From Antedon mediterranea (taxonomy: Eukaryota; Animalia; Echinodermata), in the NCBI RefSeq assembly GCF_964355755.1, contig NC_092674.1, forward strand, positions 19,220,001 to 19,284,000: a stretch of 64,000 nt of DNA. The letters are read 5' to 3'. Of this stretch, positions 30,701-55,819 are shown piece by piece (position 1 is the stretch's first letter; every line of letters starts with the position of its first letter). The notes under the pieces are model-generated. The model did not search any database and had not been told where the DNA came from. It worked only from the letters and a program-made list of their open reading frames with translations. A program made the translations under genes and the position numbers.

Positions 30701-33700
30701 TGAACAGTAAGCAGGTTTATAATGTCTACAATTTAGTTTAAAATACATATAAAACAGGATAGGTGTTTTTTCTAATTTTGACTTTTACTATAAGACCTAG
30801 TGAACGTTTAAATATGTGTTTCATGTATAATAAGACAAAATAAAAACGATTAAAAATAACCAAAACATTGTTAGACAGCCAATTCGACTAAAAATTTTTC
30901 AGGTAAATCATTTCTCAAGGTGAATAACTATTATGTTACATTAAAATTGAATATTCACAAAATAATAATAATAATTTTTCAGTGGGTTAGAAGTGTGATG
31001 TATATCTGTTGTTGGAGATTAAAATACAACAAAAAAGGCGTCAGTGAATGACAATAATGATGATGATTTGGTCATTTTGATAGATTACATCGGAATGGTA
31101 CCGTTCAGTTATGGGAAAAAGAGAAGAAAATTCTGTTAGAAAACGTAGCACAACACGAAAAAGAATTAGAAAAAGAGCTAGCCGATTTGCAAAAGGTACA
31201 CGAACAGACTAAAGATCGTTTGAACAGAAGAAATCGGGTATGTTATACATATTGTCAACTGCATTATAAAATTATTGGCTATTTAATTTTTCAGTTGTTA
31301 ATAAATAATACCATCAATCGTTCTTTTGTGTAGGAATTGGATGAAAAACTGAAAGTGGAAAAGATGAAAGATATCGTTTCTCGAATAGCAGAGAGAGGTG
31401 GTAAATTGCAATTAAAAACCATCAATATTATCATACTAAACACTGTACCTTGTTAGATTAATAATTATTTGTGTCTCAGGTTAAAAAAGAACATAGATAA
31501 AAATAAAATAATTAAATTATAAATATAACCATGTCAATTTCTGTATTAAATATTAAACGAATTGAGCACAAAGATGTTCTAATATTGATTACTCGTGAAA
31601 GAAGCACAGTAACATAATAAAAGATAAAAGCTTTTGTAATATCAACCTTTAGTTTCCACTTATTTTTTCGGATTATTTACATCAAAGAATGTCCTATTTT
31701 TCCTTCTTTATGTAATTAATTTTTACTACTTAGAAACATTTGTTGAACTGGAAGACTGTAGACGAAGGATGTATACTTTAGAAAGAGATATGACTTACAT
31801 TGAGAAAGAGATAGAAGATCATCAAAAATTATTTGTTGGCTGTATAAAAGGAGTCAGGGAAGACTTTTTGTGAGTAAATTAACTTTTGTGTTGCTGCTAT
31901 GTTAAGCAAGGTATAACATGATATAACATGCTTAGAACAATGTGGGTTATCTTCAATTATTATGTGAAAGTATCTCGGGAGAGAAAGCTTTGGACAGTAA
32001 AGACAATATATTTATTCGATCATAAGATTTTGTTTTTACTAACTGATTGTTTTACTTTGTCAACAACACATTTTACAAATTCTTTTAACAAATATAAATT
32101 CAAATACAGAAAATGCGAAAAAAACCCAAAATGTTTTAAATTAGTTTTGATAATTACTTTTCAATAATATCGCGATAAAGTTAAATTTCCTGTATTAATA
32201 TCGATTTCAATTAAATTAAATTTACTTAATGAGCTTAATTGAACAGGCCCTAATGTAATTTGAAAATATTTGTTTAGTTATAATGTATTAAGGAGAGAAT
32301 TGGAATGCCATGATGCTTCGTTCTTCAAGCAACGTCGCCAGAAGTCGTAGAAGTACAAGTTTCTCTTCTTTACTAAGAGAAACAGATTTCACTAACTATA
32401 CTATTAAGATAATGTAAAATTAAATTGACATTTTTATTAAATTTATTTATTTTGGTATACCGGTACTGTATTATAATAATATTAGATTTATCAAACTTCA
32501 ATATTTAAATTAAAACAGTTAGATTGCAAATTGATGCACTAAAATTACATAAAACCAAACAACTGGAATGGCCGTGCCATAATTAATTATCTAAAAATTG
32601 GAAAACTGAATTGCAGTGTATTACACTAAAATTGCTTAATGCCATGTCATTAATTTATTTAAATAATAATTGTTATTATGTTTTTGCGAGGGTCCCTATG
32701 ATCAGCTTCGGATGGATGGACCTCGGTAAATATTGTTGAAATAAATGAATAGATCAATTGCACAGAATGTATTCATTCAATTAATTGTTACATTACATTA
32801 GGACAATCGTAGAAAGGGATAAAGAAAATGGAACAGTGGACAAAGATGATGTAAGGAAGATGACACTTATAATGGACGCAATTTACAATGGTGTTCGTTC
32901 TGGACGTTTAGATATAACAAAAGCTGATTTGCCATTACATTACATAGCACTAGAAGAGGTTAGTTGATTCTGTATCTGTACTAAGCTCAATTGTGTGGTG
33001 TTTGTTAACGATACTTATGATTATCAGCGAAGTATGTATTGATCCCGGGTATACAGTTCATTGAAATGAAGCAAATGTCACTATTGGTATAAAATACACT
33101 TACTACCATTATCCACTTTCATACAGTTCAAGTCCTGTTTTGATTATTTATGGCAAATATATTTTGTATTATCTTAGGAAATTACCGGACATCCTTCAAA
33201 GAAGAAAATTACAAAGACGTAAGCTAGTTCTTTTTTTATAGATCTGTAAATTATTTTCAAATATCTTACAAATACATGCAATTTGTTGTTCTTTCTTCCT
33301 CATTCTTTAACCACATTGTGATCTTTTTCTCATTTTACGCCTATGTTTATATATAGGCCTAAAATATAAAATATTAACCATTCGAAAACCAACTAACGTA
33401 ATCGAATTATGTATATGTGTAAGAGTTTAAATGATTGTCATTTTCCTCTCGTAAATTATTTGCTGCAAACATTTCCAGTCAATACTTGCATATTCAAGCA
33501 GTTATTCCCGTTGAATCAAGGTATGAACGAATTATAATAGTTCACATGTTTGCTGTTATTATACGATTTTCTGACCATGTACAGTATTTCTTGCTGTATG
33601 TTACGTCCTTTTTTAAAAAATGAAAATAGTATCAGTTAGTGTAGTGCACTGTTATTGTTTTCTCCCAATATACAATACATCGACGCAGGACATATTTCCG

Positions 33701-36146
33701 ACATGACATACAGAGAGGAGTGCCAACGAATTTATCCTTAATACATTGATGTGAAAAAAGCTCTTGTAAAATTGTGTGAGAGAGCCAGATGATAACAATT
33801 CCTATTTGATTTCATAGTAGAAATAGTAGTAGGACAAACTATAATGGTAGTTCAGTTGAAAACATTATAATTAGGCTACTGTATATTAGGCTACTGTATA
33901 TTAGGCTACTGTAAATTAGGCTACTGTATATTAGGCTACTGTATAATAGGCTACTGTATATTAGGCTACTGTATATTAGGCTACTGTATATTAGGCTACT
34001 GTATATTAGGCTACTGTATATTAGGCTACTGTATATTAGGCTACTGTATATTAGGCTACTGTATATTAGGCTACTGTATATTAGGCTACTGTATATTAGG
34101 CTACTGTATATTAGGCTACTGTATATTAGGCTACTGTATATTAGGCTACTGTATATTAGGCTACTGTATATTAGGTTACTGTATATTAGGCTACTGTATA
34201 TTAGGCTACTGTATATTAGGCTACTGTATATTAGGCTACTGTATATTCCAGAAACGATATTAAATAACTGCTTATGAGATCGCCTTGGTGAGAAAAATAC
34301 GTTGTTGGTTTTATGTGTCTTTTAATATTCAATTGCACCCGAGTCATGTAGTGTAATGCATTTTACTTATTTTTACATCGTATTTTGTGTCGTTTTTACT
34401 TTAATGCTGTATGTTATTTTTTTGTCTATACTGCTGTGTATATTTTATTCCGCTACGGCGATCGTTCGAAATCACATTAAAAACTATATACTGCTCTAAC
34501 AAATGATATTCCATAGCAGGTTTAAAAATTATACATAAACGGGGGGGTTTTAGACCAAATACCGATTATGTATGCGTCTTGGAAATCCCTCTAATTTCTA
34601 ATTTAAAAGTTATATTTATATATGTTATTAGTTAGTTACGATTGTACTTATTTTTTGTGTCATTTTGTTTTTCATTGTAACAGTAAATTGCGTCCTGTTG
34701 AAAAACACCTTGAAGGAATTGATACATGCGATAAGAAAAATGAGAGAGTGAAAGATGAGAGGTTACATCAATCACGCATAACTACATCTTCAACACCTTC
34801 TTGTCCCTCTGCTCACCCACCAACGGTCCTTGTTGTTCCCGAATCGACAGATGAGCCTAACCTTACAATTCAGTCGGCAAAAACACGAATACGTAGTGGA
34901 CGTCCAAGAACTTCTTCTAAAAGTCCACGCCTCAGACCTAAAACTGCAAAGAATATAACGAATCCAGGTTCCAATGAACGAATGAATAAAACAAACAATG
35001 GACAAATAAGAGTAAACTCTACACAAAAGCACAATTCCAGAAGAGCATCGACATATTCATTTTCAACAGCAAACTTTGCCGGTATATATTTTAAGAATGT
35101 TACATATAGTATACGAATAGAAAATTTGACATAATTTCTATTAGGCCCAAAACATCACACTTATCTTTAAATTTGTTTACAGAACACCACACAGAACTTA
35201 TAAATATCAGAACTGGCCAATTAAACATTAAGGAATCAATGAAGCTATTCAAGTGTTATACTAAAGAGCAGGTACGTCATAATAATGATAATTAATAACA
35301 AATTATTGAATGGTATTATAATATACATTATAATATAAATTATAATAGGCCTTTGTAGAATTTGCGCGAATGGAATACCTGCACACAAGTGTAATTGTGT
35401 AAAAAAGATGATAATATGTTTCTCTAATGAGAGTGTGATGAATATGACTTGTTGTCACAGAGTTAGATAAGGATTTTGTTTCAAAACCCTAACACCTATT
35501 GATGAGTATCTTGACGAATCTTATGAAATTATGTTTGTGAACATTTGGACTATAAGTGACATAGATGCGTCATGGGTTTCTATATTTCTTTTTAGATTTT
35601 GGAACATTACAACATGTTTATAAAATACGATACAAGTAAGGATTATTCTCTGGACCTTAGTGAAACAAGTGAAGCAATTCATTCAACTGTTGGTGATTAT
35701 TATACACAAGAACAAATAAAGGTATATAGGTCTAGTGAATGCTATCATTATAACTCATGAGAGAAAATCACTGATTCGTTCTTGTTATCTGTCTGATCAA
35801 GGAAAGCCTTATGTGAGGCTAATAAGGCAACAGAAAGTAGCGTGTCCATGAGAATTTCACCATCTGTGTTGCTAATACATCTTCGTCTTGACTAAATGAA
35901 TATTACCGGAGACCAATAACATTGTACTATTTTTACACCTCCTGCAATACTTGACATTTTAATTTCCGTTTCTTGTAGGAGGTTATGGAGGAAGTGGATG
36001 TAAATCACTCAAACTCAATTGATTTTTATGAATACCTAGGTATAGCATCTATGTTAAAGCAACGATCAGGCAATTCAAAGGTTTTCAAAAGTGGTATTGT
36101 TAGGCATGGAGGAACATCAGTATCAAAAATGTGTGTTGTGCAATAA
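27729..36146 (+). CDS. Uncharacterised coiled-coil protein with C-terminal EF-hand pair and CaaX motif (multi-exon)
   Basis: Exons include 27729-27753 (MEIILSNQ), 28362-28582, 29290-29445, ~30117-30168, ~30569-30706, ~31084-31237, ~31334-31401, ~31735-31870, ~32802-32958, ~34684-35081, ~35183-35271, ~35597-35721 (loop DTSKDYSLDLSE) and 35979-36146 (loop DVNHSNSIDFYE; ends SKMCVVQ*). The start codon and some internal exons are uncertain. Confidence 0.75.
33871..34247. repeat. Intronic minisatellite (TTAGGCTACTGTATA)n, 15-bp unit, ~25 copies
   Basis: Directly visible, near-perfect tandem array. Confidence 0.97.
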
Positions 36147-37703: not shown

Positions 37704-38208
37704 TAAAGGAAAGAAAAGAAGAAAACTTTTCACTTCAAACGTTTCAATTTGAGAATAACAATTCTCATAATTAGGCTAGTTAAATATTAATTACTAGAAT
37801 AATCAAATGAAATAACGTTCCAATCCATTAATTATTTAATGAAGATTATCCCGCCAAATACCTTAAAACACCAATCTCGTAAAAAAAACCGGCATAGATA
37901 GAATCTGAAAATAAATGACAATAGTAGCTCAATTAAAAATAAATGAGTAAATTTAGTCAAATTCTTTATTCATTCCACGTCGGGAAATTTAAAAAACCGT
38001 ATAAACAATATAAATAAACACATACGGTAGTAATAAAAAAAAACACAAAAATTAAATCAGATTTAAATACACGAACCTTTAATCTTATTGACAGCTTGGT
38101 ATTGGTAGTTCAATAGTAAACTATTTATCAGCTATCATGCTTTCTTAAAGATAAATTGTTTGAAGATATAAAAAGTATTACTATTCCTACTATATTCCTT
38201 CTGATAAA

Positions 38209-38390
38209 CTAGATGGTACGCTTGCTTCGCTCGCGTTCTTTCTATAGTTCTCGACAATACACAGTAATTTCAGCGTAAAAAATGGCGGATTCAAATGTAC
38301 GTACCGCAGGACTAATACATGTCGTTTGCAGGAACGAATACATAGACAGGTTTATGTAGTAAAATAAAATTAGCACCCTGAGAATTACTT
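38209..38390 (-). mobile_element. Truncated inverted copy of the 26240-26410 / 52500-52720 repeat, cut at the left edge of the viral island
   Basis: Reverse complement of 26250-26410 up to ..CACCCTGAGAATTACTT (38390), where similarity stops abruptly. Confidence 0.7.
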
Positions 38391-38482
38391 GAGTCCAATT
38401 TAAATTTAGCTGGTTGTAACTTTTTAAAAGATTTGTTGTGTTCGGCTTACGTGAGAAAAAAGTGTTGGGCTGCACGCTGCGC

Positions 38483-39250
38483 TCACCGGTTCGAAGACTT
38501 TGTCATCGACACCACTCGACCGTCCACGTAGATCATGGAGTCTTCGCTGTGTCCTTCGTCGCTTGGCACGGGAGGGTATCCTATACTGATCCTACCCGTT
38601 TCGATGTCGGTTCGCATGTAGACGGGCACGTCGTCGATCGATCTGTCGTACGCTGGACCTTGGACGAGAACGTGACCGCCTTTGCGAGTGTCGTTGAAGA
38701 GAGAAAACGTGTAAATCTCGATGCCGTCCGAGTACAGCTTCATCTTGGAAAGGCAGGAGAATCCGTCCGCTTGGTCTTCGTGCGGCTCGTCGCATCGTTC
38801 GTTGGGTACCCAAGTCCTGTTGACAGCACGCATCATAAGAGAACGTCCTTCGTCCGAAACAATGTGGTATCCGGTGTCCGATGTGACCACGACGTCACCG
38901 AAGCTTAACTTGCACTTGGTCTCGCGTAAAAGGCCACCGGCACGTCTTAACCGAACGTGGTTCATCACGGTGATCGTCAAGAGCACGATTTGGACGAAGA
39001 ATAAAAGACCGGCGTAAATTCCCCAGTCACGTCTGCGTAAGTCGAAGTCACGCCCAGCCTTGCTGCGACCGGTCCTGCCAGCAACGTTTTTAGCAACCGA
39101 TCTATCGTTTCTCTTCGTGACAGGAGATCCGAGCGCATCGGTGCTGCCGACAGCATTGCCGATCTTAGCCCGTCCGAATGCACGATGCCTCCGACCGTCG
39201 TTGTCTTCTTCGATTTCGACGAACTTTTGTCTGTCGTCGTTTTCTGCCAT
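38483..39250 (-). CDS. Predicted type II membrane glycoprotein (viral island), 255 aa
   Basis: Charged N-terminal tail, single TM segment WGIYAGLLFFVQIVLLTITVM, then RLRR, Cys residues and N-glycosylation sequons NRT and NDT. Confidence 0.7.
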   Translation of the reverse strand: MAENDDRQKFVEIEEDNDGRRHRAFGRAKIGNAVGSTDALGSPVTKRNDRSVAKNVAGRTGRSKAGRDFDLRRRDWGIYAGLLFFVQIVLLTITVMNHVRLRRAGGLLRETKCKLSFGDVVVTSDTGYHIVSDEGRSLMMRAVNRTWVPNERCDEPHEDQADGFSCLSKMKLYSDGIEIYTFSLFNDTRKGGHVLVQGPAYDRSIDDVPVYMRTDIETGRISIGYPPVPSDEGHSEDSMIYVDGRVVSMTKSSNR

Positions 39251-39663
39251 TCTTGTTGACGACGTATATTGGCAAAGGTCCTGTTACGCAAACTCTCGGC
39301 GACCGAATCTTCGACGGAAAACACCGATAGCAAGCCAAACCTGACGTCGTGAATCAGTATCGAAAGACACGATAATAGGAGTGTCGAGAAGCAGAACACG
39401 TAGACTTTCATCGCTGTGTTTGCAGAGTGTTGAACTGAAACGCTGACAAGATAATTTCTCGCTTACACTCGAAATCGGCAAACTCTCGTTTTTGCGAAGT
39501 TTAGTTTGCGACCGTCGGAACGAATAGCATAAAGAGAAAACTTTCGCAATCAGGCTTCAGTCACACGTAGACCTCGGAAGTTTATCGGTAAAGCGAATAC
39601 TTAAAAACTAAAAACTAAATACTAAAACAGACAGACTCGACTCGCCGCAAAAACGGCAACAAA

Positions 39664-39936
39664 ATGAAGTCGGAAGCACAGAGAATGATCGATGTATCGC
39701 TTCGAAAAATTGGTTGTCAACGCCGGAGAGAAAGTATGTGCCTACGAAAGAAAATACTTATAGTCAGTGTATTGTGTTTGGCCCAGCAAATATTTGACGA
39801 GGATATTATGACCTGGAAAAAAAAAAATTCTACATCGACGCCTCACGTGAAGACGACAGAGACTAAATGTGCGGAAGACGAGAACAAAGAACATCGAGAC
39901 CTGACGTCAGTGGCGAGAAAAATCAGCTTCGATTAA
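39664..39936 (+). CDS. IER2/IER5-like (immediate early response) N-terminal domain protein, 90 aa
   Basis: EAQRMIDVSLRKI..RRRESMCLRKKILIVSVLCLAQQIF aligns by eye with the recalled IER5 N-terminus [39 protein letters not shown]; good ATG context (AAAATG). Confidence 0.72.
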   Translation: MKSEAQRMIDVSLRKIGCQRRRESMCLRKKILIVSVLCLAQQIFDEDIMTWKKKNSTSTPHVKTTETKCAEDENKEHRDLTSVARKISFD

Positions 39937-39973
39937 TATATGAAGAGGAAAGTACCGGACAGACCAGCATTTC

Positions 39974-40312
39974 TTGACACACATAAACCTTCATCGCAGA
40001 TGCAGGGCGAATAAAAAAAAAAAGAAAGATAAAAACCGCCGACGCGACATCTTGCTTATTACATCGGAAAATCGAATAAACAGAAATGTTTACGGAGGCC
40101 GTGTGCGTTCCGATCAAAGCTTTGTCGACTACTTGCAAGATCGTCTGTTACATTTTTTGTCTCGCCATTTTAGGATGTGTCGGGTTCGCCATCTGGTGGA
40201 TTTTAAAATTCGTCGAAACGTTACGCAATATTTAAATCGCTGCGTTCGACGTCTGGAGACGGGTGGGGGGGGGGGGGGTGGGGGAGGGGAGAGAGAGAGA
40301 GAGGAAAAATAA
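39974..40312 (+). CDS. Small Arg/Lys-rich hypothetical protein (no ATG at the ORF start; possibly frameshifted)
   Basis: Protein-like core SFVDYLQDRLLHFLSRHF; AATAAA overlaps the stop; runs through poly(A) and poly(G) tracts. Confidence 0.35.
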   Translation: MTHINLHRRCRANKKKKKDKNRRRDILLITSENRINRNVYGGRVRSDQSFVDYLQDRLLHFLSRHFRMCRVRHLVDFKIRRNVTQYLNRCVRRLETGGGGGGGGGEREREEK

Positions 40313-40389
40313 AATATAATATCATTTTGTAAATAAACGAAGTTCATTCTCGTTTGAGAGTTTGTTCGGGACGGATCGAACGAATAAAC

Positions 40390-41334
40390 ATGAAGAGGAA
40401 CGTTCACGATCAGGATGGAGCTTTCGCTTCGATCATACAGAGACCTCGAAAATTGCGTAAAGAATGCTTTGTCGCCCGACCGACGGACTCGACTTGCCAC
40501 GCGGCGAGTCGTAGTGCTGTGACAAGATTCAGACAGAGGATGAACGCCGGAGCTGGCGTGTCTCTTGTGAAGTCGACGTGCATCGTGGACCGGATCGCCA
40601 AAGAACTGCGCAGGACGGAAGGCGAATCCGACATTCTCACGCGGATGGTGGAAAGGTACCACGAACGGAGGGCCAAAGGCGACGAGTCGGGTGCGACAGA
40701 AGACGAGATGATGTACGAGTACTACGTTCGTAGTGTGGTGACCGCCTTGTTAAACGAAAAAAGTCATTTCATCGATCGAGTACGAAACTTGCCAAACGAG
40801 TCTTTGAAACCGGATCCATGGACGATCGACGTTCTGCACTTTAACAGCTACGAGCACGGATACAGGAGCGACGTCAAATCGGTACTCCGTCCCTGCGCCT
40901 CTCCCGACTGCTTGTCGAGATACGTGCAAGGCGGTGGCGAAGAAAGTCCCACATTGGCGGAATGCATGAACGTAGACGCCATGAAAGTGGTCATCGGTGG
41001 TTGAAGTCTCGAAGACGTCGGAGCCTCCAATCATTACGGAAGGCCGTACTGCATACTGTGCCTGATAAGCAACGTATACTCGAGATGCATGGATCCGTTG
41101 GGAAGTCGCACCATGGATCTGTGCGAGTACGCCACTTCTTTCTCGTTTCGCATAGTCGACCTGAATCCTGATTACGAGGTGAAATGTCAGTTTACTATGG
41201 CGGAGTCAGGCGTTCAGCTCACTTACCACTACCTTAACGTTGATGGCGTCATCGATCTTCTCAGATGGGTGAAAGACAATCCTTCTGATCCTTACAGAAT
41301 AGATTTTTCCGTACTGATGAAAAAAGCGGACTGA
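40390..41334 (+). pseudogene. Cys-motif (putative Zn-binding) viral protein, ~314 codons, with one in-frame premature TGA
   Basis: ORFs 40354-41004 and 41089-41334 are in the same frame; reading through TGA at 41002-41004 gives ..VIGG*SLEDVGASNHYGRPYCILCLISNVYSRCMDPLG..; motifs RPCASPDC and CILC. Confidence 0.75.
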
Positions 41335-41732
41335 AAATGATACAAACAAATATTATTTTTTTTTCTTTAAATTTTGTTTTATTAAAAAAAAAAAAACCAA
41401 ACAACAATTACAGTCATGTATTTTTTTCTAATTACTTTCTTTGTAAGTGTCTATTTTTCGTTGGTGTAAAAAAGTTCTCATCACCAAAGTTGTTGAATGC
41501 ACGAAATTCTTTGTGAAATAGTTATTGCATGGTACATCATACCGTGTACATCATACACCGGTATGGTGTGTCGAAATTAATTAAATCGCTGTGTCGTTGC
41601 ATGGATTATTTAATTGTGTAAAATACGTCTTGTTTTTGCAAAGGGAGAAAAAAAAAAAAAAAATAAAATAACATTTTGTTATTCAATTTTCTTTTTCTTT
41701 TTTTTTTTTTAAAGGAAATCGAAACTTTTTTT

Positions 41733-42602
41733 TTAGGCGTACAATACGACTATGTTTTCGCTGGGATCCTCACTCAAATCGAACCTGGCTCTGAAATCTT
41801 CTGTTAGGTCGGTGGACATCGGCGCCACTCCAGATATCGGCCTGTCTCTCGCCATCTGTTCCATTTGCCAATCTTCCAATCGACGGTTGGTCCGTTTCAA
41901 CATCCTCGTGTAATCCTTGTACATAGCAGTCTGCAACGTTATCCGCAAAGCGGCGTCGACGACTTTCGGAAACGACTCGCAGACGATCGTGTACAGAGAA
42001 GGGACGCAATTTTCTCGTTCTCTCTCCCTCAAGCTATTCAACAGGAAAAGTTCGACATCTTTGATCCTGCATTTGTAATAGTTGTTTCCGTCCAGTTTGC
42101 ACTTGAAATTTATCGTCTTACGGTACGGTAAATCGTGGTCTTTCAGGAAATTGGCAAAATCTTCGACGGCTTCCAACGGCCTGCACGATCCTTTGTACAC
42201 GAATCGTACCCTGTTTCCTCGTTCCCAGTTTTTCATCAGAAGCTCCAACATCGGATCGGTCAGCAGTCGGGTGGCCGACACTCTCGTGCGAACGTACGAG
42301 AGCAACGGCTCTTCGTCGTTGGCGGGGACGACGTCCCAGTTGTAATTGCCGGACTCCATAACCGGGCGGTAATTCGTTCCATCGTACTGATGTACTGAAC
42401 GGAAAGTTTTCTCAAAGTCTGTCAGTCGCTGCTCTCGTAAACTAGCTGCTTCAGATCTTCTCAACATGTTTGACAAAAGAATGTTACGATGTTTGCCCAC
42501 AAGAGTATTAAACGATACTTCAAAACGTGTAAACCTGACAGTTTCCGTCAAAACAACATTGGCGGTTATATATTGCATATGTTTCGTGAAAGATGACATC
42601 AT
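41733..42602 (-). CDS. Hypothetical protein (viral island orphan), 289 aa
   Basis: Long intact ATG ORF with island-type codon usage, divergent from the nuclease gene; no recognisable family. Confidence 0.75.
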   Translation of the reverse strand: MMSSFTKHMQYITANVVLTETVRFTRFEVSFNTLVGKHRNILLSNMLRRSEAASLREQRLTDFEKTFRSVHQYDGTNYRPVMESGNYNWDVVPANDEEPLLSYVRTRVSATRLLTDPMLELLMKNWERGNRVRFVYKGSCRPLEAVEDFANFLKDHDLPYRKTINFKCKLDGNNYYKCRIKDVELFLLNSLRERERENCVPSLYTIVCESFPKVVDAALRITLQTAMYKDYTRMLKRTNRRLEDWQMEQMARDRPISGVAPMSTDLTEDFRARFDLSEDPSENIVVLYA

Positions 42603-42714
42603 GGTTGACGAATTGTAATGTCGTAGAATGTGGTTTCATTGGTTAAGAGTGATTGATGAGGAGGATGACATCGTCGTTGACAAACGATTGTCAGTCTCAA
42701 CGAGCTTTCGTTGG

Positions 42715-42785
42715 GACGACGTTTCGCCGACGATGACGTCGTAGGCGACGACGTTTCGCCGACGATGACGTCGTAGGCGACGACG
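42715..42785. promoter_or_regulatory. 32-bp tandem repeat (2.2 copies) with CRE-like TGACGTC in a divergent promoter region
   Basis: GACGACGTTTCGCCGACGATGACGTCGTAGGC at 42715 and 42747, partial at 42779; lies between the ATGs at 42602 (-) and 42991 (+). The regulatory role is inferred. Confidence 0.5.
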
Positions 42786-42990
42786 CTGCTGTCACCTTTA
42801 ACTAAGGTTTTTTTTTGTTTTTTTTGTAGATTTTGCTTTTTCTTGGTTTGTTTTGTGTTTTGTTTTTAGTTTTTTTCGTTTTTTGTTTGTTTTTTGTTTA
42901 TTCAGTCAGTTTCGTTGTTATTATATATGTCAGTGGTTTGGTCAGGTTGTGGAAATACTGTAAACAGCTAGTAAACCGTTTCTGAAAGTC

Positions 42991-44493
42991 ATGGGAATAA
43001 AAGGGAAATTTGCAGACCTAATAGATGTGAATGCGAGGTCTGACCGATCTTTCACCGAAAACTGTCAGGATGTTTCGATTGCAATGATAGACGCGACGCA
43101 GACATTTCATCGTATCGTCACACGTCCGATCGGGAAGAGAGTGGAGGATGCGTTTCCAGACATCGAGGCGTGCATCGAAGAATCGGTCGTTTTGGGAGAG
43201 ATCGAAGAAAAATATTGGCGAGACGGTAAGGGCAAAGACGTCGTCAACGCGTACCAGCGCTTCAGCGTCCAGGACGTGATCTTTGCGTTTTTGGACGACG
43301 TGCTGGGCTACGTAGATCAGGTCGTTTGTTCTCAGAAGAAAACGCAGCCGGAAAACCCTTTGACCGCCGTCATCTTATTTGTTGATGGCGCTGCTCCGTT
43401 TGCTAAGATTGCCGAGTTGAAACGCAGAAAAGAGAAGAGGGGCAACACAGTCCTTACCAGCGTCCGCAAATTCAGCAAGTTAGACAAAGAAACCGAGGCG
43501 AAAGCAGCACTGAAAGGAACGACTGTCTGCAGAGACGAACGCGGAAACTACTTAGGCCTCGTCGAATCTTTCATCAGTTCGAGAGAGCACAGGGCGAGCG
43601 TGTTAAGCGGTCTTCCGTCGACGTTCCGGCATAAAGACGGCAGATACGCAAGAGATTATGCGGTGTACATGTTCACAGGCGCAGGTCTGAAAATCGACAG
43701 TTTCGGGCGGGATTGGTGTAGGCTGTTCCCTCCCGAACGCCCTTCGAATTGGTGCACCGATTTCGAAAGTTTTCTGCCCGAGCGGAACGTTTACTCGGAG
43801 GCGGACATACTCTTCGGAGTCGTGCACGACATCGTTCGATTCCGTACGAATGTGCCTTCTTCCAACATCCTCGTGGAGACGTGCGACAGCGACTGTTTGA
43901 TCACCCTCACGGCGATGCAATCCGACGCTCTGCTGGTTCGTAAACGAAACGAAGTGTCGTACCGGATAGGCGGATGGTCCAGGTCGACGCTGGAAAGCCC
44001 TTCCGTTTGCCTCAACTTTTTGATAGCAGCCTCCTTCCTCGGTTCCGACTACCACGGGCACGTGCACGGCGTCGGACCGACGATTCAGAAGAGGATGTTC
44101 GTGGACAGGTACACGTTCCCGTTCGTGGACTTGGTCAACGTCAGGGGAACGACGACGATCACGTCCGTCAAAGATGTGCAAGACGAAGCGATCGCCGAGT
44201 GGCACGCCGAACTTGCGAAGTACGACGATCTTTTCTGTTTTCGATTCGGAGATTCCATCGTGCCTTTCAGATACAAAGAAGAGAACAACCAAGTGTATGC
44301 CGAAAATTTGATCGCCATGGCTTCCAAGAGTTGGATCGCAAGGGTGACCAAAAACGTCGCTGACAAAACCATGCTGGATCGACTGATTCGACAGAATTTC
44401 TTTTTCCTCGAGTACATGACAATCACTCGATCTCGAATTGACGACCGCTTGAGAGATTTTCCGCAACTCCGTCGCAAATACGGATTCGACTGA
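42991..44493 (+). CDS. FEN1/XPG-family (PIN-fold) 5' nuclease, divergent viral type, 500 aa
   Basis: MGIKG start, MIDAT, LFVDGAAPFAK..ELKRRKEKR, EADI, TCDSDC, LGSDY and GVGP (H3TH): the acidic motif set of the FEN1/XPG family; intronless. Confidence 0.88.
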   Translation: MGIKGKFADLIDVNARSDRSFTENCQDVSIAMIDATQTFHRIVTRPIGKRVEDAFPDIEACIEESVVLGEIEEKYWRDGKGKDVVNAYQRFSVQDVIFAFLDDVLGYVDQVVCSQKKTQPENPLTAVILFVDGAAPFAKIAELKRRKEKRGNTVLTSVRKFSKLDKETEAKAALKGTTVCRDERGNYLGLVESFISSREHRASVLSGLPSTFRHKDGRYARDYAVYMFTGAGLKIDSFGRDWCRLFPPERPSNWCTDFESFLPERNVYSEADILFGVVHDIVRFRTNVPSSNILVETCDSDCLITLTAMQSDALLVRKRNEVSYRIGGWSRSTLESPSVCLNFLIAASFLGSDYHGHVHGVGPTIQKRMFVDRYTFPFVDLVNVRGTTTITSVKDVQDEAIAEWHAELAKYDDLFCFRFGDSIVPFRYKEENNQVYAENLIAMASKSWIARVTKNVADKTMLDRLIRQNFFFLEYMTITRSRIDDRLRDFPQLRRKYGFD

Positions 44494-44752
44494 GGTGAAA
44501 ACCAAAAAAAAAAAAAAAATTCAAAAAAATTACCAAACGCTGTACGTTCAAAATAATAAATAATAGTGATAGATTAAAAAAAAAAAACAAATACGTTGAT
44601 TGACTTGGCTTTTTTTTTTTTTTTTTTTTTATTATTCATTAGCATCACATTTATTTGTCAATAATTTTTTATAACAAACAAAAACATTTGTAACTAAAAA
44701 AAAAAAAAAGAAAAGAAGAAAAGAGAATAGCAAAATAGGGGGGGGGGGGGAA

Positions 44753-45973
44753 ATGGATCTATTGAATAAGGGTCAAGGAGGGAACAGTCATCGACGACGG
44801 ATGGTGTTCCAACTGAGAGACTCCTGCTTTGCAGAAGTAGACGAAATGTCGAGGGACGTTTGTCCGCCAAAGAGGGAAGGAGATTACGAAGTGAAGACGT
44901 CCGTGCACGCCGATTGTCGCCTGTCTAGAGCGCAATTCCCCATCGAAGTTGACGCCGGACCGAGCCTGTGGAGATTCGACAGGGTGTCCGTCAAGTTGAA
45001 CGCCGGAGCGATGTCTACGTCGTCTTTGTACGGGTGGAGGTTGATGGTGCTCGACAAAAAGACGAGGTCTATGACGCCTGCCTTCTGCAGAAAAGTGCCT
45101 ATCACCTGGTCCGGTGTGGCCGACGTAACTCGACGGAGCGTCACCGACGAAGAGAGCGTCGAGAAAAATGTGAGGACCGCGTGGAAAGACGACTACCACG
45201 GAGCGTTGACGAGCCAGACGAGATGCGACGAAGCCGCTCCCGTCTTGATGAGCGAAAGAAAGAGTCACAACGTTATGTCTTTTTTCGGCTCGCCGCTTGC
45301 GAAGCATCTGTCGGAGCGCGATTTTCGTGTGTCTGTAGACGACTTTGACAGCGTCGACCATAAAGCTCGTGCTTTGCTTATGCCCAAGCGACAAGATAAC
45401 TTGGATGACTGCATGAAGTACATGAAAGACCGCGGTTACGGCGACAAAGAGATCACGATGGCGCACTTCGAGAACGTGATCCACGCCGCCCTTAGGTCGT
45501 GCGGTCCGTCGTTGATGTTGATGACCGACAAAAAGCACTTTGACGAAGACGATTTCAAGAGCACGAAAAGCGACTACCTCGTGCCTTTTCCTATAGTGCA
45601 GTCGTTGGTGGACGTGACAAAAAGTTTACATTCGCAGTCCAATTACGTTCTGATGAACGGCAAGAATCTTGTGCTGGAGCTCGACAGGTTCGTCGACTCC
45701 GACGACCGTAAGGTGGTAGGCTCCGTTGAACTTGTCATGGAATACGTATCGGATCCCTGCATGCCCGTAGATCGTCCGTGGAGCGTCGACCAGACTATAG
45801 AAAGCGATCTTTTGAAAGTCGACAAGACGGTGAACGATGTATTTGCCGAAGGCCGTCACCTCGGATTGGAGACGGAAAGCGATTACCGAAAGGACGGAGA
45901 TGAAGACGACGACGACGGCGGCGGCAGCGACTTTCGTCGGGGTTCTCGTGGTTGCTTAAAACAAGAATTCTAA
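44753..45973 (+). CDS. Hypothetical viral protein, possibly a beta-sandwich or jelly-roll fold; last residues come from the adjacent satellite
   Basis: 406-aa ORF with alternating-hydrophobic strands at both ends (FDRVSVKLN, WRLMVLD; LVLELDRF, GSVELVMEYV) and an acidic tail; the final CLKQEF* is read from the first repeat unit. Confidence 0.75.
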   Translation: MDLLNKGQGGNSHRRRMVFQLRDSCFAEVDEMSRDVCPPKREGDYEVKTSVHADCRLSRAQFPIEVDAGPSLWRFDRVSVKLNAGAMSTSSLYGWRLMVLDKKTRSMTPAFCRKVPITWSGVADVTRRSVTDEESVEKNVRTAWKDDYHGALTSQTRCDEAAPVLMSERKSHNVMSFFGSPLAKHLSERDFRVSVDDFDSVDHKARALLMPKRQDNLDDCMKYMKDRGYGDKEITMAHFENVIHAALRSCGPSLMLMTDKKHFDEDDFKSTKSDYLVPFPIVQSLVDVTKSLHSQSNYVLMNGKNLVLELDRFVDSDDRKVVGSVELVMEYVSDPCMPVDRPWSVDQTIESDLLKVDKTVNDVFAEGRHLGLETESDYRKDGDEDDDDGGGSDFRRGSRGCLKQEF

Positions 45974-46985
45974 AAAATACAAACCGGAATACTCTTACTT
46001 ATTTTAAGAAAAATATTGCTTGAAACAAGAATTCTACAAATAAAAATCGGAATATTCTTACTTATTTTAAGAAATATGTTGCTTGAAACAAGAATTCAAA
46101 AAATACAAATCGGAATATTCTTACTTATTTTAAGAAAAATATTGCTTGAAACAAGAATTCAAAAAATACAAATCGGAATATTCTTACTTATTTTAAGAAA
46201 AATATTGCTTGAAACAAGAATTCAAAAAATACAAATCGGAATATTCTTACTTATTTTAAGAAAGATATTGCTTGAAACAAGAATATTAAAATTAAAAATC
46301 GGAATATTCTTACTTATTTTAAGAAAAATATTGCTTGAAACAAGAATTCTACAAATAAAAATCGGAATATTCTTACTTATTTTAAGAAATATTTTGCTTG
46401 AAACAAGAATTCAAAAAATACAAATCGGAATATTCTTACTTATTTTAAGAAAAATATTGCTTGAAACAAGAATTCAAAAAATACAAATCGGAATATTCTT
46501 ACTTATTTTAAGAAAAATATTGCTTGAAACAAGAATTCAAAAAATACAAATCGGAATATTCTTACTTATTTTAAGAAAAATATTGCTTGAAACAAGAATT
46601 CAAAAAATAAAAATCGGAATATTCTTACTTATTTTAAGAAATATCTTGCTTGAAACAAGAATTCAAAAAAATACAAATCGGAATATTCTTACTTATTTTA
46701 AGAAATATATTGCTTGAAACAAGAATTCTATAAAATACAAATCGGAATATTCTTACTTATTTTAAGAAATTTCTTGCTTGAAACAAGAATTAAAAAAAAT
46801 ACAAATCGGAATATTCTTACTTATTTTAAGAAATATATTGCTTGAAACAAGAATTCTATAAAATACAAATCGGAATATTCTTACTTATTTTAAGAAATAT
46901 ATTGCTTGAAACAAGAATTCAAAAAAATACAAATCGGAATATTCTTACTTATTTTAAGAAAAATATTGCTTGAAACAAGAATTCT
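45954..46985. repeat. 63-bp tandem repeat, ~16 copies (TGCTTGAAACAAGAATTCAAAAAATACAAATCGGAATATTCTTACTTATTTTAAGAAAAATAT)
   Basis: Period of 63 is visible (46017, 46080, 46143, 46206...); it produces the 21-aa repeat ORF 46016-46717. Confidence 0.96.
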
Positions 46986-47251
46986 ATTTTAAAAAATTGA
47001 TAAATTGTTACTTATTTTAAGGCAGATACTGCTTAAAACAAAAATGAAAAAAGCAATTAAATTCTTGGTAAGAATATTGTTCTTAAAGTATTATTTCTTG
47101 GTAAGAATAATTTTCTTGATAAGAATTTTACGATTCTTGGTAAGCCAAAAAGTATTGAAATACGGACAAGTCAAAATTTACTTGTTTCAAGAAATATTTT
47201 GCTTGAAACAAGTTTTTTTTTTCTTAAAACAAGAATCAGAATTTTGCTGTG
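45954..47251. mobile_element. Right part of a repeat-bearing non-autonomous DNA transposon (CAC-type end, EnSpm/CACTA-like); left end missing
   Basis: The array degenerates into inverted subrepeats (CTTGTTTCAAGA / GCTTGAAACAAG) and ends ..AATTTTGCTGTG|TA, which reads CACAGCAAAA on the other strand; no matching left TIR found. Confidence 0.5.
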
Positions 47252-48751: not shown

Positions 48752-51700
48752 TTAGTGGCGTACTGGCAAGAAATAAAATAATATAAATACTAAAACCACT
48801 ACAGTATAAATCATACAATGCTTCATTTTTTGTGTATAGGAATCATTCTAGATTGATGCTTTGTTTTGTTCGTAAACATCTCAATTTATATACATACATT
48901 TTCTTTTATAGAAAATATATTTATAGATAATGTAACCTTCGCTTTAATATTGTCTTACATCTCTCATTATTTTTAAGTATGCTTCTAAAAGCCTATTTTC
49001 CACTATACATATTTGTTCATGCGAATCGAAAGCGTCAGCTTACAGTCATTCATAGAGGGAGAGGGATTTGGAAGATGGAAACACTAATACACATGCGTAT
49101 AAACTGACGCTTTCGATTGGCGTGAACAAATACGACTAGTGGAAAATCGGTTAAATTAGGGCTGGTGACGATAGCAAAATAGGCATACATGTTTCCAAAA
49201 TACGTAAAATTGAGGGCGCTGTGATTCGCCAAAACACGTGACTCATGTAAAAATACATAACATTGAGGGCGTTATGCTTCACCAAAATGAGTGACTAATG
49301 GAAAAAATATATAAAATTGCAATACATTGATTACATGCATTCATACTTTAATGCCCCATAAACTGCAGTACTTACGTTTTTCACACACATACGCTAGCTT
49401 TAGGTTACATTTTCGATCATTCCACTCCCCAGATTTATACATCATAACACAATCTTCGTCTCCTTTCCAATTATTTGGCTCATCCTTTGCATACTCTGAA
49501 AAAAATTAGATGAAGAAGTTTTTTTTAAATGATGAATGAGTTTATATATTATTTTTGCATTTACAAGTAATTCGAAATTGTTTCTGCTAGACTGGTCACA
49601 AATTAAGCGACACCAGCAATTAATTATTTAAACTAGACACCGATAGTTTACATATTTTCAGTTTTAGGCATTGTTTTAAGGTCATATTATGATGAATGTT
49701 CTGCATACTTATAAACTAGAAATTACAAATTGAAAGTGCGGCGAGCAGATCTATGGACATACAAATGTGCTGAAACAGATACCGTAGTTTAAGCGGCGGA
49801 TCCAGTCTTCTTCAAGATAGCGATGGAAGGGCGTGAAATCTACGCCAAACATAACATTGGAATTTCACATGTGAACTGAAAGACCCCCGGTGGTTTGAAA
49901 GAACTAGTGTACAACAGGAATTGATTTCAACCGCAGAGAGCGAAAGCCGTAATTTCGCCTTTGATCGCCTTAGGCCCATGTTTTATAGTAATACTATGAC
50001 CTTTCTTAACTGAGAAGCAACGAAGTGCTACGGGAGTTGAATTTGCTGTCCAGAACATAAATCGCTTTTTCGCAGTAAAAACTGTCAGTGCTTGAGTATT
50101 TATCGATGCTTCTAACTTTAAAACCAACACAACTCACGATGATCATGCGTTCATGGCATACATCATGTTGGAACTTCGAACAAGTTACATTTAAAAACAT
50201 ATCTTTTCAGATATTACGTACCGTATTTGTAACTTAGATGATAAAGATAAACCAAAAACAAATGATGATTTGCTTACTGGTATAAGTTGAGCGTTCATGT
50301 GTGACCCAGGCAAATCTTCCTTCTCTGTCTCTATGTAAACCAATCCATTTTTTGACGTTAGTAAGTTTATCGACAAAATGATTTTCAGCCGAATCTTCTA
50401 TCACAACAAGGTCAGCCCCGTAACCTTTACAATTAGCTCTAGCCGTTTCCCACTCAACATTTTTCTTAAAGTATTGGTAACAGTTTTGTCCATGTGTTAT
50501 CCAATTAGTTGGACAATCTATAAAATAAAATTATCTATATTTGACACATTTATATGTTTAGATTAAATCATCATTTTTGTTTACTTTCATTGCTATAGAA
50601 TGTTTTTTTGTTGTTGTTTTAACTCTGTTTTTTTCACAAAAGAATATTTCCCAAAAAGAGCGAAACATTCTTTCTCCTAAGATTGTAACAAATATCAATT
50701 TTGATTTTGAAATTGTTTCAGTATATCTGATTTGATGTAGTAAATGTTTCTGTTATTAACAGTTTGACAATCGGTTGATGAGACAGATTTTCCGATGCAC
50801 ATAATATATGACGTTACAGGAAATTCACCGCGACTGCTGAAAAGTGAGTGCGTTATTGTTCTAATATTACATAATACTTATAATATATTGGTAAAGTTGT
50901 TTTATAACTTTATAATTCAACGTTTATATATTGAGTAATCATCTGATAGTCAGGGCTTAAAAAACTAAATAGATAAACCAATGTTACAGACATAATTATA
51001 ACGTATTTTACCTATTTATTTAACACATTAGATTATCATGTGTGTGCATGTTATTCCATTCCCTAAGCTATATAAAATAAATTGTTGTTTAGATGTACTG
51101 TCTAGGAACAGTGTTAACTAGTAAAAATAAAATAAAATACAAAAAATGTGCCAAAAGAATAAAAGAGCAAGCCTGGTGTTTTGATTTTTAAGAAATTTAC
51201 AGAAAATATTATCCATTGTCTTTTGATTTAAAATACCTTCGTTATGTTTTGTCTCCAGAAGTGTTTCTAAGGTTTCTGAAATGAATAAAATACAATAAAT
51301 AATAATAATGATAATACATAAAACATACAACTACTTTGAACAAAACTATATAAGGAAAACCTATTTTTTAGTGGAAAATGTTACTAATTTATTTGACTTG
51401 AGATTATTACTTGGCTGTTGTACATTACTTTTTTTTCGGTTGGTCAGTGATTGTTCCTCATCGGTCAGTCTTTTTTTCGTGTGTCGGTCAGTGTTTGTTC
51501 GTTTATCGGTCAGTTTATTTGTGTGGTTGACTCGAATATAATAGAAACGCCAGTGCTCGTTAAGTAATTAAATCTTAAAGTCATAAGTTATTCGGTCCTT
51601 TTCATTATTTACAAAAAACTTACAAAAACCAAGGCCAACCTATGTGAAATAAATCACTGTAACTGAGCCGGTGGACCCAACCTGAATTCAGTTATAACAC

Positions 51701-51803
51701 CTTCAAACATTACAACATAGAGTTAAAAATGGAGGGAAATAAATAGCTACATGCCTACCTTTTTTTGAAAGATTTGTTTCAGCTGGCTGTTTTATCACAT
51801 TTG
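48752..51803 (-). CDS. Single-domain C-type lectin (EPN/WND type); first exon not identified
   Basis: Phase-1 exons 51803-51759, 51275-51237, 50517-50278 (CPTNWITHGQNCY..WETARANC..GADLVVI..WIGL), 49495-49376 (EPNNWKGDEDCV..WNDRKC..YVCEK), 48762-48752 (LRH*); AATAAA at ~48660. Not captured by the ORF track. Confidence 0.88.
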
Positions 51804-51889
51804 CTGAAATAAATAAGACGTTTAACTAGTGAAATTATTAAATTTTGGTTAAGCCGAAGCCTGTGCCTAGACAACTAGTGAACAAATTT

Positions 51890-52722
51890 ACTTTTTTAAC
51901 ATTTAATGCCGGGTATTTCTATCTACTTGACTTTTGAGACAAATCTGAACATAGAATATATAAAGCATTTGCGAGTGGTTTTCGTGACCATTAGAGGAAT
52001 ATAGCATGTATTTATTTGTAGGACTAGTTGCGATTGTTTAAATTTACAAAATGGCGGATATTTCTGTCTACGTGATATTTGACCCAATCTGAACACAACC
52101 AACGTGAATAAAATTAGCCAGACGTATCGCTGAATGTGTAGGACTTTTTTATATATACAATACTTCCGCCCACATAACCTCTGACCTAAATATGAAAAGC
52201 TGGATCAAGCATGTGCTAGTGGTTCTTCTGACCTGGTTTCAGCGATATCGAGTAAAGTGTTTTGCAGAAGTAGCAATTTCAACATCGTTAGGCCTACATG
52301 CTACTTCAACCGACTATGACAGTGGCAGTTTCAACAAAGTGTTTTACTGTGTTCAGTGGTACATTATTTATAATACATAAGAATATATTAAGAATATATT
52401 TAAAAATTGTTCCTCTTTCTTCCCCATCTCTAAACCTTAATGTTACATACAACGTTGCACGTATTGGGTTTGTTTATATGTAAGACTAAACAAGTTTCTC
52501 TTCCGGAAGTAATTACCATGCTGCTAATTTTAGTTGCCTACATAAATCACAGTGTCTACTTATTCGTTCCTGTGAATGATAGGTTTTATAGTCCTGTGGT
52601 AGCCAACTAAGTATTGCGTACATTTGAAAATCGCCAGTTTTTACGCTGAAATTACTGTGTATTCGAGAACCATTTGTGGGCAAGACTAGATGGTTCGCGA
52701 GCGAAGTGACCGTACCATCTAG
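51890..52722 (+). mobile_element. Dispersed repeat, same family as 25100-26410
   Basis: 52330-52672 is colinear with 26030-26400; ends in hairpin CTAGATGGT..ACCATCTAG. Left boundary approximate. Confidence 0.55.
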
Positions 52723-53304
52723 TTTTAATTTAAGGTAGGCCTAAACAATTTTGAAAGAAACACCAGAAGCGTAATAGTAGTAGCAATCGTAAGTGCACGT
52801 TATAAACAGAAGCGTCACAATATATCATGCGATTGCATCGCATTGTGTAAGTAGTCACGTTGTGAGAACTTACCAGAGGTGTGCAGCGTGTATGTTAGAC
52901 AGAGAAGCATCACTATATTCGTTGAGAGTGTCATCTTGTAGAAGTATGTTGTTGTTGCTGAATCAGAAGTTAGAACTGATATTGTTACTTTTGTTGCATC
53001 ACTTACATTGTGTGGGCACTTTATGTTGAATGTTATCAATTATCAATCTCGGATGGATCCATGATAAGAGGAGTGGTTTATTCGATATTGTAATAATAAA
53101 TATTGATTATCAATCAAACGTAATATTGGTTCCATAGTAACATGATAACATAATATAATGTGGGTGAATCTAAAGTGTAACGCTTAAAGATAAAGGCCAG
53201 AAGATCTTCAGCGTGAACTGAATGATTATATTCACGAAAGTGACGCTTTATTTCGCAAATAAAAAAAAGAAAAACAATATAGGCCTAATTATGTACTACT
53301 AGCT

Positions 53305-53592
53305 TACAGACCAACAGTGTATTGGACGTTGGACTATTGATCGTGAGATCGTGAGTTAGAATCCAAAGCTCATCGCATTTCCTGTATCCTTAGACTAGAT
53401 ACATTACTTTCGTTTGCCTCTCTCCACCCAGGTGTACAAATGGGTACATGGTATTAGGTCAAAACACAAAGCCGATTACTGGCTTTACCACCATTGTGGG
53501 AGTATGTTTGATCCAAAAATCACTGGGGTAATAATGTGGAGGCTTAGAGGCTTTGTGCATTAGGCGCTATATAAGAACGACGTATTATTAAT
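53305..53592 (+). mobile_element. tRNA-derived SINE (degenerate)
   Basis: B-box-like GTGAGTTAGAATCC, central TGCCTCTCTCCACCCAGGTGTACAAATGGGTAC, tail GCTTAGAGG..ATTAGGCGCTATATAA..(TAT)n; the same tail is inverted at ~2216-2280. Confidence 0.7.
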
Positions 53593-55819
53593 ATGTCTAC
53601 CCTAGTACTGATAGGTCTACTAATCTCAATTATGATGTCATCACAATTTCAGGCCTTTTCAGATCACTGTAGGGTGAAGGCCTCCTCAAGCTGAACCCGT
53701 CTTTTTCTGTCCTATTTTGCCCATCTGTTGTCGTTCGTCTGGGGAGGTTTTCTGTCCATTTCCATATCTATTCTATTTGTTCCATTATGTCACGTCTCTA
53801 CGTATAGTAGTATATAAGGTGGTGAAAGAGACATGATACGTACAATGGAAATACAGTTTTTAAACTGTATTATGTACCAATGTTTGTAGCATGCCTCCAT
53901 AATTAAAATTACTATTTTAAAATTAAAAACACTCTCTGCTTAACGTAAGAATACGTGTTTTTATTTCTTTAGAAAATAATTCTTATTGGTTGCGCTGCCG
54001 AGGGTGTTTTCCTGTGTGTGACCAAATAAAAACATGGAGTATACTAGAGAACAAAGTATCGATTCTATTTATCGGCATTTTGGATTTGCCCGTGATGTGT
54101 TTCCGTTGTTTCTCCATTTTTTTGTTTCTTTCCTAGTTTTACCGAAAAAATCCAGTGAGAAAAGGGATACCTTCTACTTTATTGTTTACTGTCAATCACT
54201 TTAACACTTGCCATTTTGTTTACCAAAGTTTAAAATACGTGTAAATTACATAAGAAATGCTAGCATAATTCCATTTCTAAAAATAGCTTTTACCTTTACC
54301 TTTAAAAGAGAATCAAATCTGTTCCTTTTATCTTTATCCAGTAGATTGTTGATTAGCATTAATTGTTATGGACAGCTACAGACGATAAGCTAGCCCAACA
54401 CGGTCAATGGTCAGTGACACCATTTCAAGTGTACTCGCCCACGTTTTTTGTTTATATGCTGTCAGTTCATTCTTTACATATATTTATAAATGATGTTCAT
54501 TTTAACAATGAATAGAAAGAGAGTTGTACCGATTCTTTTTGCTGAATCAGGATAAGTTTGATAAATCATTATCATTTTTTATATCTTATACCAAGACAGG
54601 TAGTCTAATGTTTTGTAGAATTTTCTGTGATATATTGTTTTAAGGTAAATAATAATATTTGTATTCCCATGCGCAACACCAACTATTTGGTAAAGTATTA
54701 GATATTCTGGGCCACTCATGTATAACAATGTACCCCCTCATTTTCTTGTGCTGCCACCAGCTATTCATTCTCCAAGATCACTTTATGTGTCTCGATAAAT
54801 CGATAAGTTTGATATGGTCGTTGTTTCTGTGAACTCAGCTAGATAATATTTTTCTGTCGTCATTTTGTTCGTTACTATGCCCAGCAGCAATACGTTTTTA
54901 ATTAATTTTTGTCAACGTTTATCTACTAGTATAATCTTTATTTTTAAATTTGTTTTTTTATTTTTATTTATTTTTTATTATTAATTATTAATGTGTCAAG
55001 TCAATCCCACAAGATTTTCATCTTTTTAGAATTCTGCCTTCGTCCATTACTTTTTTACAATAATCTCAATCTGTCACTACTGTTTTTAGTCGCGTGCAAC
55101 GCGAATCTACAGCTCACTATGTCGGTTGGTCGGTCGGTTGTTCGGTAAACACAAAATAAATGTCTTTTGAATTTAATTGAATTTAAAGGGATTGCATGAC
55201 GAAAATCAATAAAGATTGATATAAATTTTGTAGTACATTAGTTCTGAAACAGATTAAGGGTTCAAATAGTCCAGAAAAATGGAAAATATAAGTAAGGTTG
55301 TTTTGAACGTATAGTATACAATAGAAATACGATTATTTGTTAATGATTTAGATTTAAAGCATTCTGTAACAAAATTTAATACATGTTGCGTAATTTAAAA
55401 ATGTATACACTGAACCGTCCCTGACTGACTATTTTAGAAAAGCATTTTATAGATATAATAAGTTAATGACAAAAATCAAGAATATTTTCAACATGAACTT
55501 TTTTAATGCTAATTATAATGGAACTGGTCACACATGAAATTAATACGGGCCTATAACTAGTATTATTATTATTATTATTATTAATATATTAGTATAATCA
55601 GGAATTTGTATATTAATTATTATAGAAAATTAATACGAATTACTTGATTAATGAATATTACATTTAAGACAAATAGTATTTATTATGTGAAATTTCTGAG
55701 TACAGTAGGTTATTTCTCATTGTTTAAACAAATGATATAATTATTATTTCTTCGCTTATTTTCTTTAATCAATTTACATAAATGATTTCCATTGTAATTG
55801 CAGTATGGTGTTCAAATAA

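Follow-up and report, generated by a model that had tools for sequence, protein, structure and literature searches.

A truncated virus-like gene block in the Antedon mediterranea genome and its longer form in sequencing runs

How does a compact, GC-rich run of intronless genes come to lie between two spliced genes of an animal? The question is raised by a 64,000-nucleotide stretch of Antedon mediterranea DNA (NC_092674.1, forward-strand positions 19,220,001 to 19,284,000; hereafter the window, whose first letter is position 1). The initial annotation had taken a block at 38391–45973 for an endogenous fragment of an apparently undescribed large double-stranded DNA (dsDNA) virus. Our analyses support a block that is foreign, virus-like and recently acquired. 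We consider it probable that the block was cut from a longer element, which is likely an undescribed large dsDNA virus genome, and that break repair, as opposed to an integrase of its own, likely put it in place recently. New to this picture are a longer form of the element, found under two organism labels and likely transcribed, and a distant relative that keeps one of the block's gene pairs.

A compact block and its longer form

Across 38391–45973 the GC content is 0.471 and the observed/expected CpG ratio 1.54, as compared to 0.328 and 0.70 in the left flank and 0.322 and 0.90 in the right, which bears out the sharp rise first described. Six non-nested open reading frames (ORFs) starting with ATG (A–F, 90–500 amino acids (aa)) are intronless, lie on both strands and leave 74% of 38440–45951 coding. 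This packing exceeds chance: in 200 dinucleotide simulations, neither an ORF of at least 400 aa nor five ORFs of at least 200 aa arose (0/200 each). GC content at third codon positions is 0.58–0.65 in five of the six ORFs and 0.45 in ORF B, and the homopolymer spacers reported earlier are visible between the ORFs. Poly(A) signals were recovered in part. Hexamers lie no more than 110 nt downstream of ORFs B, C and E (three of six) inside the block; none was found within that distance of ORFs A and D, and that of ORF F falls in host satellite. We regard these hexamers as weak evidence, because the spacers are AT-rich and no chance control was made.

A spliced plus-strand gene on the left and spliced minus-strand lectin/FG-GAP exons on the right both turn their 3′ ends toward the block, in agreement with its first placement between two ordinary host genes. 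Its span proved real, with both ends moved inward. On the left, a host repeat ends at about 38408 and contigs of four runs (X1, X5, X6 and X8) start matching at 38440; on the right, a 63-bp host satellite begins at 45952, which places the edge at 45951. Neither terminal repeats nor a target duplication were found at these edges, and no repeat common to the block and its flanks was found.

Ten sequencing runs contain the stretch; eight of them, from three studies and under two organism labels, have at least half of its words. Contigs were compared for the four runs named above (X2–X4, X7, X9 and X10 were left out), and the organism labels C and D (shares 0.12 and 0.07) were not used as evidence. 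X1 may be the source sample and hence not independent. Leftward past 38440, contigs of all four runs continue for 1262–3736 nt of sequence unlike the window; rightward past 45951, those of three of the four continue for 1664–1848 nt, so that the longer form measures at least 13.1 kb. These overhangs indicate that the block is one part, cut off on both sides, of a larger element.

Mismatches to the window over the block amount to 0.09% in X1, 0.55% in X5, 1.25% in X6 and 1.12% in X8, and the host exons of X5 differ by 1.4%. Since the copies of the second organism are about as close to the window as alleles within the first, we infer that the spread was recent. The 12 variant sites listed in ORFs (four at third, five at second and three at first codon positions) are a filtered subset of 227 rows and are uninformative on selection.

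Run X5 bears on transcription. Its record 7 joins 34784–35080 to 35977–36264 in the left host gene, with 214 letters between them as compared to 215 nt for the two intervening exons, and bin depths in X5 track exons (expected 2.73 and 3.79, seen 2.67 and 3.83). This spliced host join indicates that X5 holds spliced RNA. Contigs of the same run cover 38440–44492, a span of five genes, and one of them continues past the left edge, so that this contig derives from the longer form. The bins over ORF F (44514–45680) have a depth of 0, a hole not used as evidence. The element is likely transcribed; contigs give neither the strand nor the level of that transcription.

Gene content and a distant relative

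The FEN1-like nuclease of the initial annotation, ORF E, stood up to closer study. It starts with an N-terminal MGI, and seven acidic positions (D34, D132, E270, D272, D299, D301 and D353) are kept, seven of seven, in ORF E and in P0003 and P0004, both full-length relatives aligned. Seven acidic metal-binding positions and an N-terminal MG start together make up the FEN1/XPG nuclease motif, and the residues present predict an active nuclease. In the ESM Atlas a Pox_G5 cluster ranks third (0.93) after two unnamed clusters, one with a few members recorded as bacteria, and an XPG cluster of nucleocytoplasmic large DNA viruses scores 0.90. Three relatives were retrieved among 1.84 billion representatives (E 3e-20 to 3e-15), all unnamed metagenomic proteins, at 26% and 28% identity over full length and 47% for a fragment. 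A word-indexed search returned nothing with ORF E alone and only P0003 and P0004 with a profile. Pfam Pox_G5 and XPG matched neither ORF E nor its relatives, and the family profile had a sole PDB match, to an XPG/FEN1 chimera (E = 0.47). A pattern scan of 185,579 GTDB prokaryote species gave no relative of ORF E or ORF F, and a tblastn search of phage records none of ORF E; both searches required short exact words and do not demonstrate absence. A single-sequence model of ORF E reached a pLDDT of only 36 and was unusable, and the Foldseek matches that it gave were set aside as noise.

One of the ORF E relatives is encoded on a contig of 10.4 kb, L001, whose ORFs are intronless and closely spaced. 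The gene that follows the nuclease on L001 is a distant ORF F homologue (18–21% identity), whose alignment score of 83 compares with 38 ± 5.6 for shuffles and was reached by 0 of 500. With this homologue next to the nuclease, the E–F gene pair is conserved.

L001 carries other genes as well. Upstream of the nuclease gene are minus-strand ORFs of 144 and 146 aa (L001:545–979 and L001:1835–2275) that look like tandem paralogues of an unassigned family. A plus-strand ORF at L001:5127–6245 encodes a Cys-rich protein of 372 aa in which, as judged by eye, a signal peptide is followed by a Cys domain repeated about three times and, at the C-terminus, by a membrane anchor; it has no Pfam match, forms a singleton cluster and is a candidate viral glycoprotein. 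Another, at L001:7599–7898 (+), encodes 99 aa with two zf-met (C2H2) fingers (E = 6.4e-11).

ORF F had been called jelly-roll-like, and structure prediction agrees. Its low-confidence AlphaFold2 (AF2) model is a β-sandwich with a long insertion, and resembles one jelly roll as opposed to a tandem pair. We predict from this model a single jelly roll interrupted by a large insertion; the protein may belong to the virion. Relatives of ORF F are P0007 (59% identity; in Logan and ENA) and P0006 (18%). Its last seven or so codons are host satellite, and by comparison with P0007 the part clipped is a low-complexity tail only. A viral Foldseek search placed alloherpesvirus proteins at ranks 1, 2 and 4 (E 0.0036, 0.055 and 0.066), a likeness that we treat as a lead only, because the unusable ORF E model also gave an unrelated match. 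A second structural look at ORF F gave Z up to 5.6, and the ESM Atlas no usable match. A reading of ORF F by eye as half of a nucleocytovirus double jelly-roll capsid protein found no support: no such protein is among the 50 VIA matches listed, a result that is not decisive.

The remaining ORFs are less readily placed. ORF A has a single hydrophobic 19-mer from residue 78 (KD 2.3), two N-glycosylation sequons and three cysteines. It matched nothing in Pfam, NCBIfam, PHROG, PDB or IMG/VR; ORF D had no significant match in the same five resources, and the overlapping ORF A2 no family match in Pfam, NCBIfam or PHROG. The best PDB match of ORF B is the IER5 N-terminus (8uo5_D, E = 0.33), with alignment over the whole IER5 N-terminal hairpin. 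Against the published consensus, the helix-2 motif of ORF B is exact and the helix-1 motif has Met for Ile/Leu at position 1. Together with a Pfam IER match below cut-off, this upholds the earlier idea of a host-regulator mimic, here a predicted mimic of PP2A-B55 regulators; no viral IER/SERTA homologue was found among the 20 literature matches listed of 31. ORF C joins ORFs of 204 and 81 aa into one frame with an in-frame stop at codon 205, and it has no Pfam match with the stop read as X. At codon 205 the X1 contig agrees with the window and the contigs of X5, X6 and X8 differ. The claim that most ORFs are intact accordingly needs this stop and the clipped end of ORF F as exceptions, and is otherwise upheld with qualification.

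As a set, the block ORFs had no family match above cut-off in Pfam, NCBIfam or PHROGs and no significant match in PDB sequence searches, and Rfam had no match over 36000–48000. IMG/VR scans with the ORFs gave no relative; these scans need short exact words, so absence is not implied. In the spacer between the divergent ORFs D and E, 42708–42785 holds 2.5 copies of a 32-bp GC-rich tandem repeat that could be a viral origin or promoter element. Coordinates of the block, its ORFs and the adjoining host features are collected in Table 1.

Table 1. Features of the block and its surroundings, in window coordinates
Feature	Position	Strand	Basis or remark
Left host gene, spliced, 3′ end toward block	28363..36146	+	Exon translations, X5 record 7
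Host dispersed repeat at left junction	38244..38408	.	Copies at 26254-26404 and 52507-52725; depth in thousands
Virus-like block	38440..45951	.	GC/CpG; run contigs continue beyond both edges
ORF A, 255 aa, predicted type II membrane glycoprotein	38483..39250	-	Sequence features
ORF A2, 144 aa, hydrophobic N-terminus, overlaps ORF A, doubtful gene	38977..39411	-	ORF list
ORF B, 90 aa, IER/SERTA-like N-terminal helical hairpin	39664..39936	+	Pfam IER, PDB, motifs
ORF C, 314 codons, Cys-motif protein, family unassigned	40390..41334	+	Frame read through stop
ORF D, 289 aa	41733..42602	-	ORF list
ORF E, 500 aa, FEN1/XPG/poxvirus-G5-type 5′ nuclease	42991..44493	+	Acidic residues, Atlas, relatives
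ORF F, predicted jelly roll	44753..45951 (frame to 45973 via host satellite)	+	AF2 model, VIA, Foldseek
Host 63-bp tandem array, 16.3 copies, at right junction	45952..46984	+	High copy in X1, X5, X6, X8
Right host gene(s), spliced C-type lectin and FG-GAP exons, 3′ end toward block	49375..59400	-	Pfam, translation

Competing explanations and lineage

We propose that a chromosome break in a repeat-rich spot took up a 7.5-kb viral piece, an event that left no sign of an integrase. A large DNA virus would infect or persist in the animal and a relative, likely using the host nucleus. Its longer form may be integrated or latent at low copy number, be transcribed and pass from one related host to another. 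The window's own copy, without replication or packaging genes, would be immobile alone and is likely a passive relic, with the longer form as the active entity. The role of ORF E would resemble that of poxvirus G5, namely the trimming of 5′ flaps in replication and recombination. From its model ORF F may serve as a jelly-roll virion protein, and the sequence features of ORF A would suit an envelope glycoprotein. ORF B may bind the host PP2A-B55 phosphatase in the manner of IER5 and SERTAD.

Several observations weigh against a truncated viral genome piece, or against the evidence for it. As the initial annotation had said of the block, no hallmark gene was recognised there by Pfam, whether for a capsid protein (HK97-fold or double jelly-roll), terminase, portal, triplex, A32 ATPase, D5 primase or polymerase (PolB included), and no hallmark gene was recognised on L001. 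The ORF F model, built from four sequences, has a mean pLDDT of 42.5 (55–76 in the strand blocks) and a pTM of 0.43. Its best VIA match (Z 7.1, root-mean-square deviation 3.6, 120 aligned) has a Z of 7 in the range of generic β-sandwich matches, and Foldseek gave it no match at E 0.001, PDB included. The unrelated top match of the unusable ORF E model had a Foldseek E of 0.0069, and a profile of ORF F with two close relatives reached P0006 only at E = 0.019 among 111 frames. The Pfam IER match of ORF B (E = 0.0019, 19 bits) falls under the cut-off of 22.6. Two flank pieces in X6 and X8 differ from the window by about 6%, figures that may reflect paralogous repeats. No run with the stretch is recorded as RNA, and the RNA status of X5 was guessed from its record. 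Viral DNA is an alternative source of the X5 block contigs; transcription of the element and abundant viral DNA in the library nonetheless both point to an active element. Finally, no contig among those listed for the four runs bridges either junction.

This last point is the basis of the alternative that fares best, namely that the virus is real and its insertion an artefact of assembly, in which repeats led to a false join between host DNA and a viral contig that was free or integrated elsewhere. Both block edges touch high-copy repeats, and X1, the best match to the window, runs past both edges into other sequence. Short-read contigs are, however, expected to break where a junction abuts such repeats, which accounts for the missing bridges, and the block and flanks have no common repeat for a false join. 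Depths in X1 (11.8 in unique flank, 16–25 in block contigs) fit one copy here and one or two elsewhere, which is weak evidence against a chimera. Overall, we judge a chimera unlikely.

Slightly less weight falls on the idea that the block is an internal fragment of a giant transposon with cargo genes, or of a virus–transposon fusion for which Teratorn is a precedent (as described in PMC5601938). A mobile chromosomal element would fit the apparently low copy number, the occurrence in several individuals and the near identity across two organism labels. Against this, no transposase, terminal repeat or target duplication was found at the locus, L001 has no transposase in its 10.4 kb, and the block genes resemble virion and host-control genes; a Teratorn-like element would still mean viral ancestry. 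An origin in a cellular symbiont (protist, fungus or bacterium), by transfer or contamination, is very improbable: FEN1-family nucleases are universal and the unnamed Atlas clusters that lead for ORF E include the one with a few bacterial members, but the prokaryote and phage scans gave no relative for the genes searched, NCBIfam gave no notable match, the block lacks introns and any recognisable housekeeping gene, and its IER/SERTA-like gene argues for an animal host.

For a truncated viral genome piece, the preferred reading, the question of lineage follows. The FEN1/XPG family also occurs in herpesviruses (vhs), so ORF E does not fix the lineage. A herpesvirus- or mirusvirus-related candidate had been named at the outset; the alloherpesvirus ranks of the low-confidence ORF F model speak for it, the nuclease resembles poxvirus G5, and the lineage is not established. 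By our own estimate it leads at somewhat under an even chance, followed by a nucleocytovirus- or nudivirus-like lineage and then by something else, both of them serious contenders. No pif gene, lef-type RNA polymerase or p74 gave a Pfam match in the block or L001, both of which are only fragments.

Comparison with known systems leads in several directions. The alloherpesvirus proteins that top the viral Foldseek ranks (RaHV-3 A0A1X9T5B3, AngHV-1 ORF81 and RaHV-2 ORF112) have ORF F-like lengths (414–463 aa), but share only 8–12% identity with it at TM 0.20–0.26, and their hosts are fish and frogs. AngHV-1 ORF81, the homologue of CyHV-3 ORF60, is given as a tegument-associated virion protein in Table 3 of PMC3203048, and a term search of the main text of a structure-based alloherpesvirus annotation (PMC13030845) found no flap nuclease. 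ORF E resembles poxvirus G5 and the nucleocytovirus FLAP/XPG nucleases (NCVOG1060, as outlined in PMC3493329) in its MGI start, seven acidic positions and Atlas placement, and differs in its lack of a Pfam match to either family. Mirusviricota, as portrayed in PMC12768974, are herpes-related, keep a conserved jelly-roll protein in their virion module and include many predicted nuclear replicators; their known hosts are protists, and their jelly-roll protein and ORF F are likened by description only.

Teratorn and AciHV-3 of lake sturgeon (as presented in PMC12031113), integrated alloherpesviruses of fish, show how a large DNA virus can be inherited in the chromosome at low copy number, and the longer form may be of this kind. 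Those are whole genomes of about 180 kb with telomere-like repeats or a piggyBac transposase, whereas the block is a 7.5-kb fragment without such ends. Large-DNA-virus regions outside named families, which a preprint describes in invertebrate chromosomes, are like the block embedded in invertebrate DNA. They carry a DNA polymerase that places them; the block, without a hallmark gene, probably falls below that preprint's rule of three distinct viral hits. ORF B shares the hairpin and both helix motifs with the IER5/SERTAD regulators of PP2A-B55 outlined in bioRxiv 10.1101/2023.08.29.555174, and differs from them as viral cargo of 90 aa with predicted binding.

A bolder proposal, possible and on balance doubtful, is that the block comes from a hitherto unseen family of large DNA viruses of animals, placed toward herpesviruses and mirusviruses. 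Such a family would combine a G5-like nuclease, an alloherpesvirus-like jelly-roll virion protein and an IER/SERTA mimic, and would persist as a transcribed, low-copy, inherited or latent genome in two invertebrate species while shedding chromosomal fragments.

Few invertebrate groups are known to have large DNA viruses, and surveys built on marker genes overlook such fragments because no gene matches a curated family. Among the literature matches listed we found no description of this viral lineage, and PMC8148134, PMC10132985, PMC11565193 and bioRxiv 2026.02.13.705735 contributed nothing further. It would be an unplaced one for which public data contain three or more related viruses, and the E–F pair provides a two-gene marker for more. 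With the runs that contain the longer form, its placement can be tested directly, as can the question of an integrated or latent state. A viral IER/SERTA mimic, if true, would be a new route to host PP2A-B55.

Host flanks and repeats

The genes on either side are of host type. The left gene appears coiled-coil and EF-hand-like by eye, and a 15-bp tandem array (25 copies, 98% identity) lies within one of its introns at 33870–34247. The right exons match Pfam Lectin_C (E = 5.8e-10) and FG-GAP_3 (E = 5.2e-24); at 55823–56659 and 57940–59400 (minus strand), exons of C-type lectin type and one large exon of FG-GAP repeats are combined in the host gene or genes. Over 45952–47235 the 63-bp array is accompanied by an inverted partial copy at 47178–47213, which suggests a host element of the non-autonomous kind that has lost its left part at the junction. 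Farther away, repeat arrays of 143/291 bp in opposite orientation (4164–4992 and 8401–9416) surround frameshifted frames at 6465–7046 and 6949–7842 that have no Pfam match. This repeat-flanked set is probably a decayed DNA transposon, and similar frames are present at 60577–61068.

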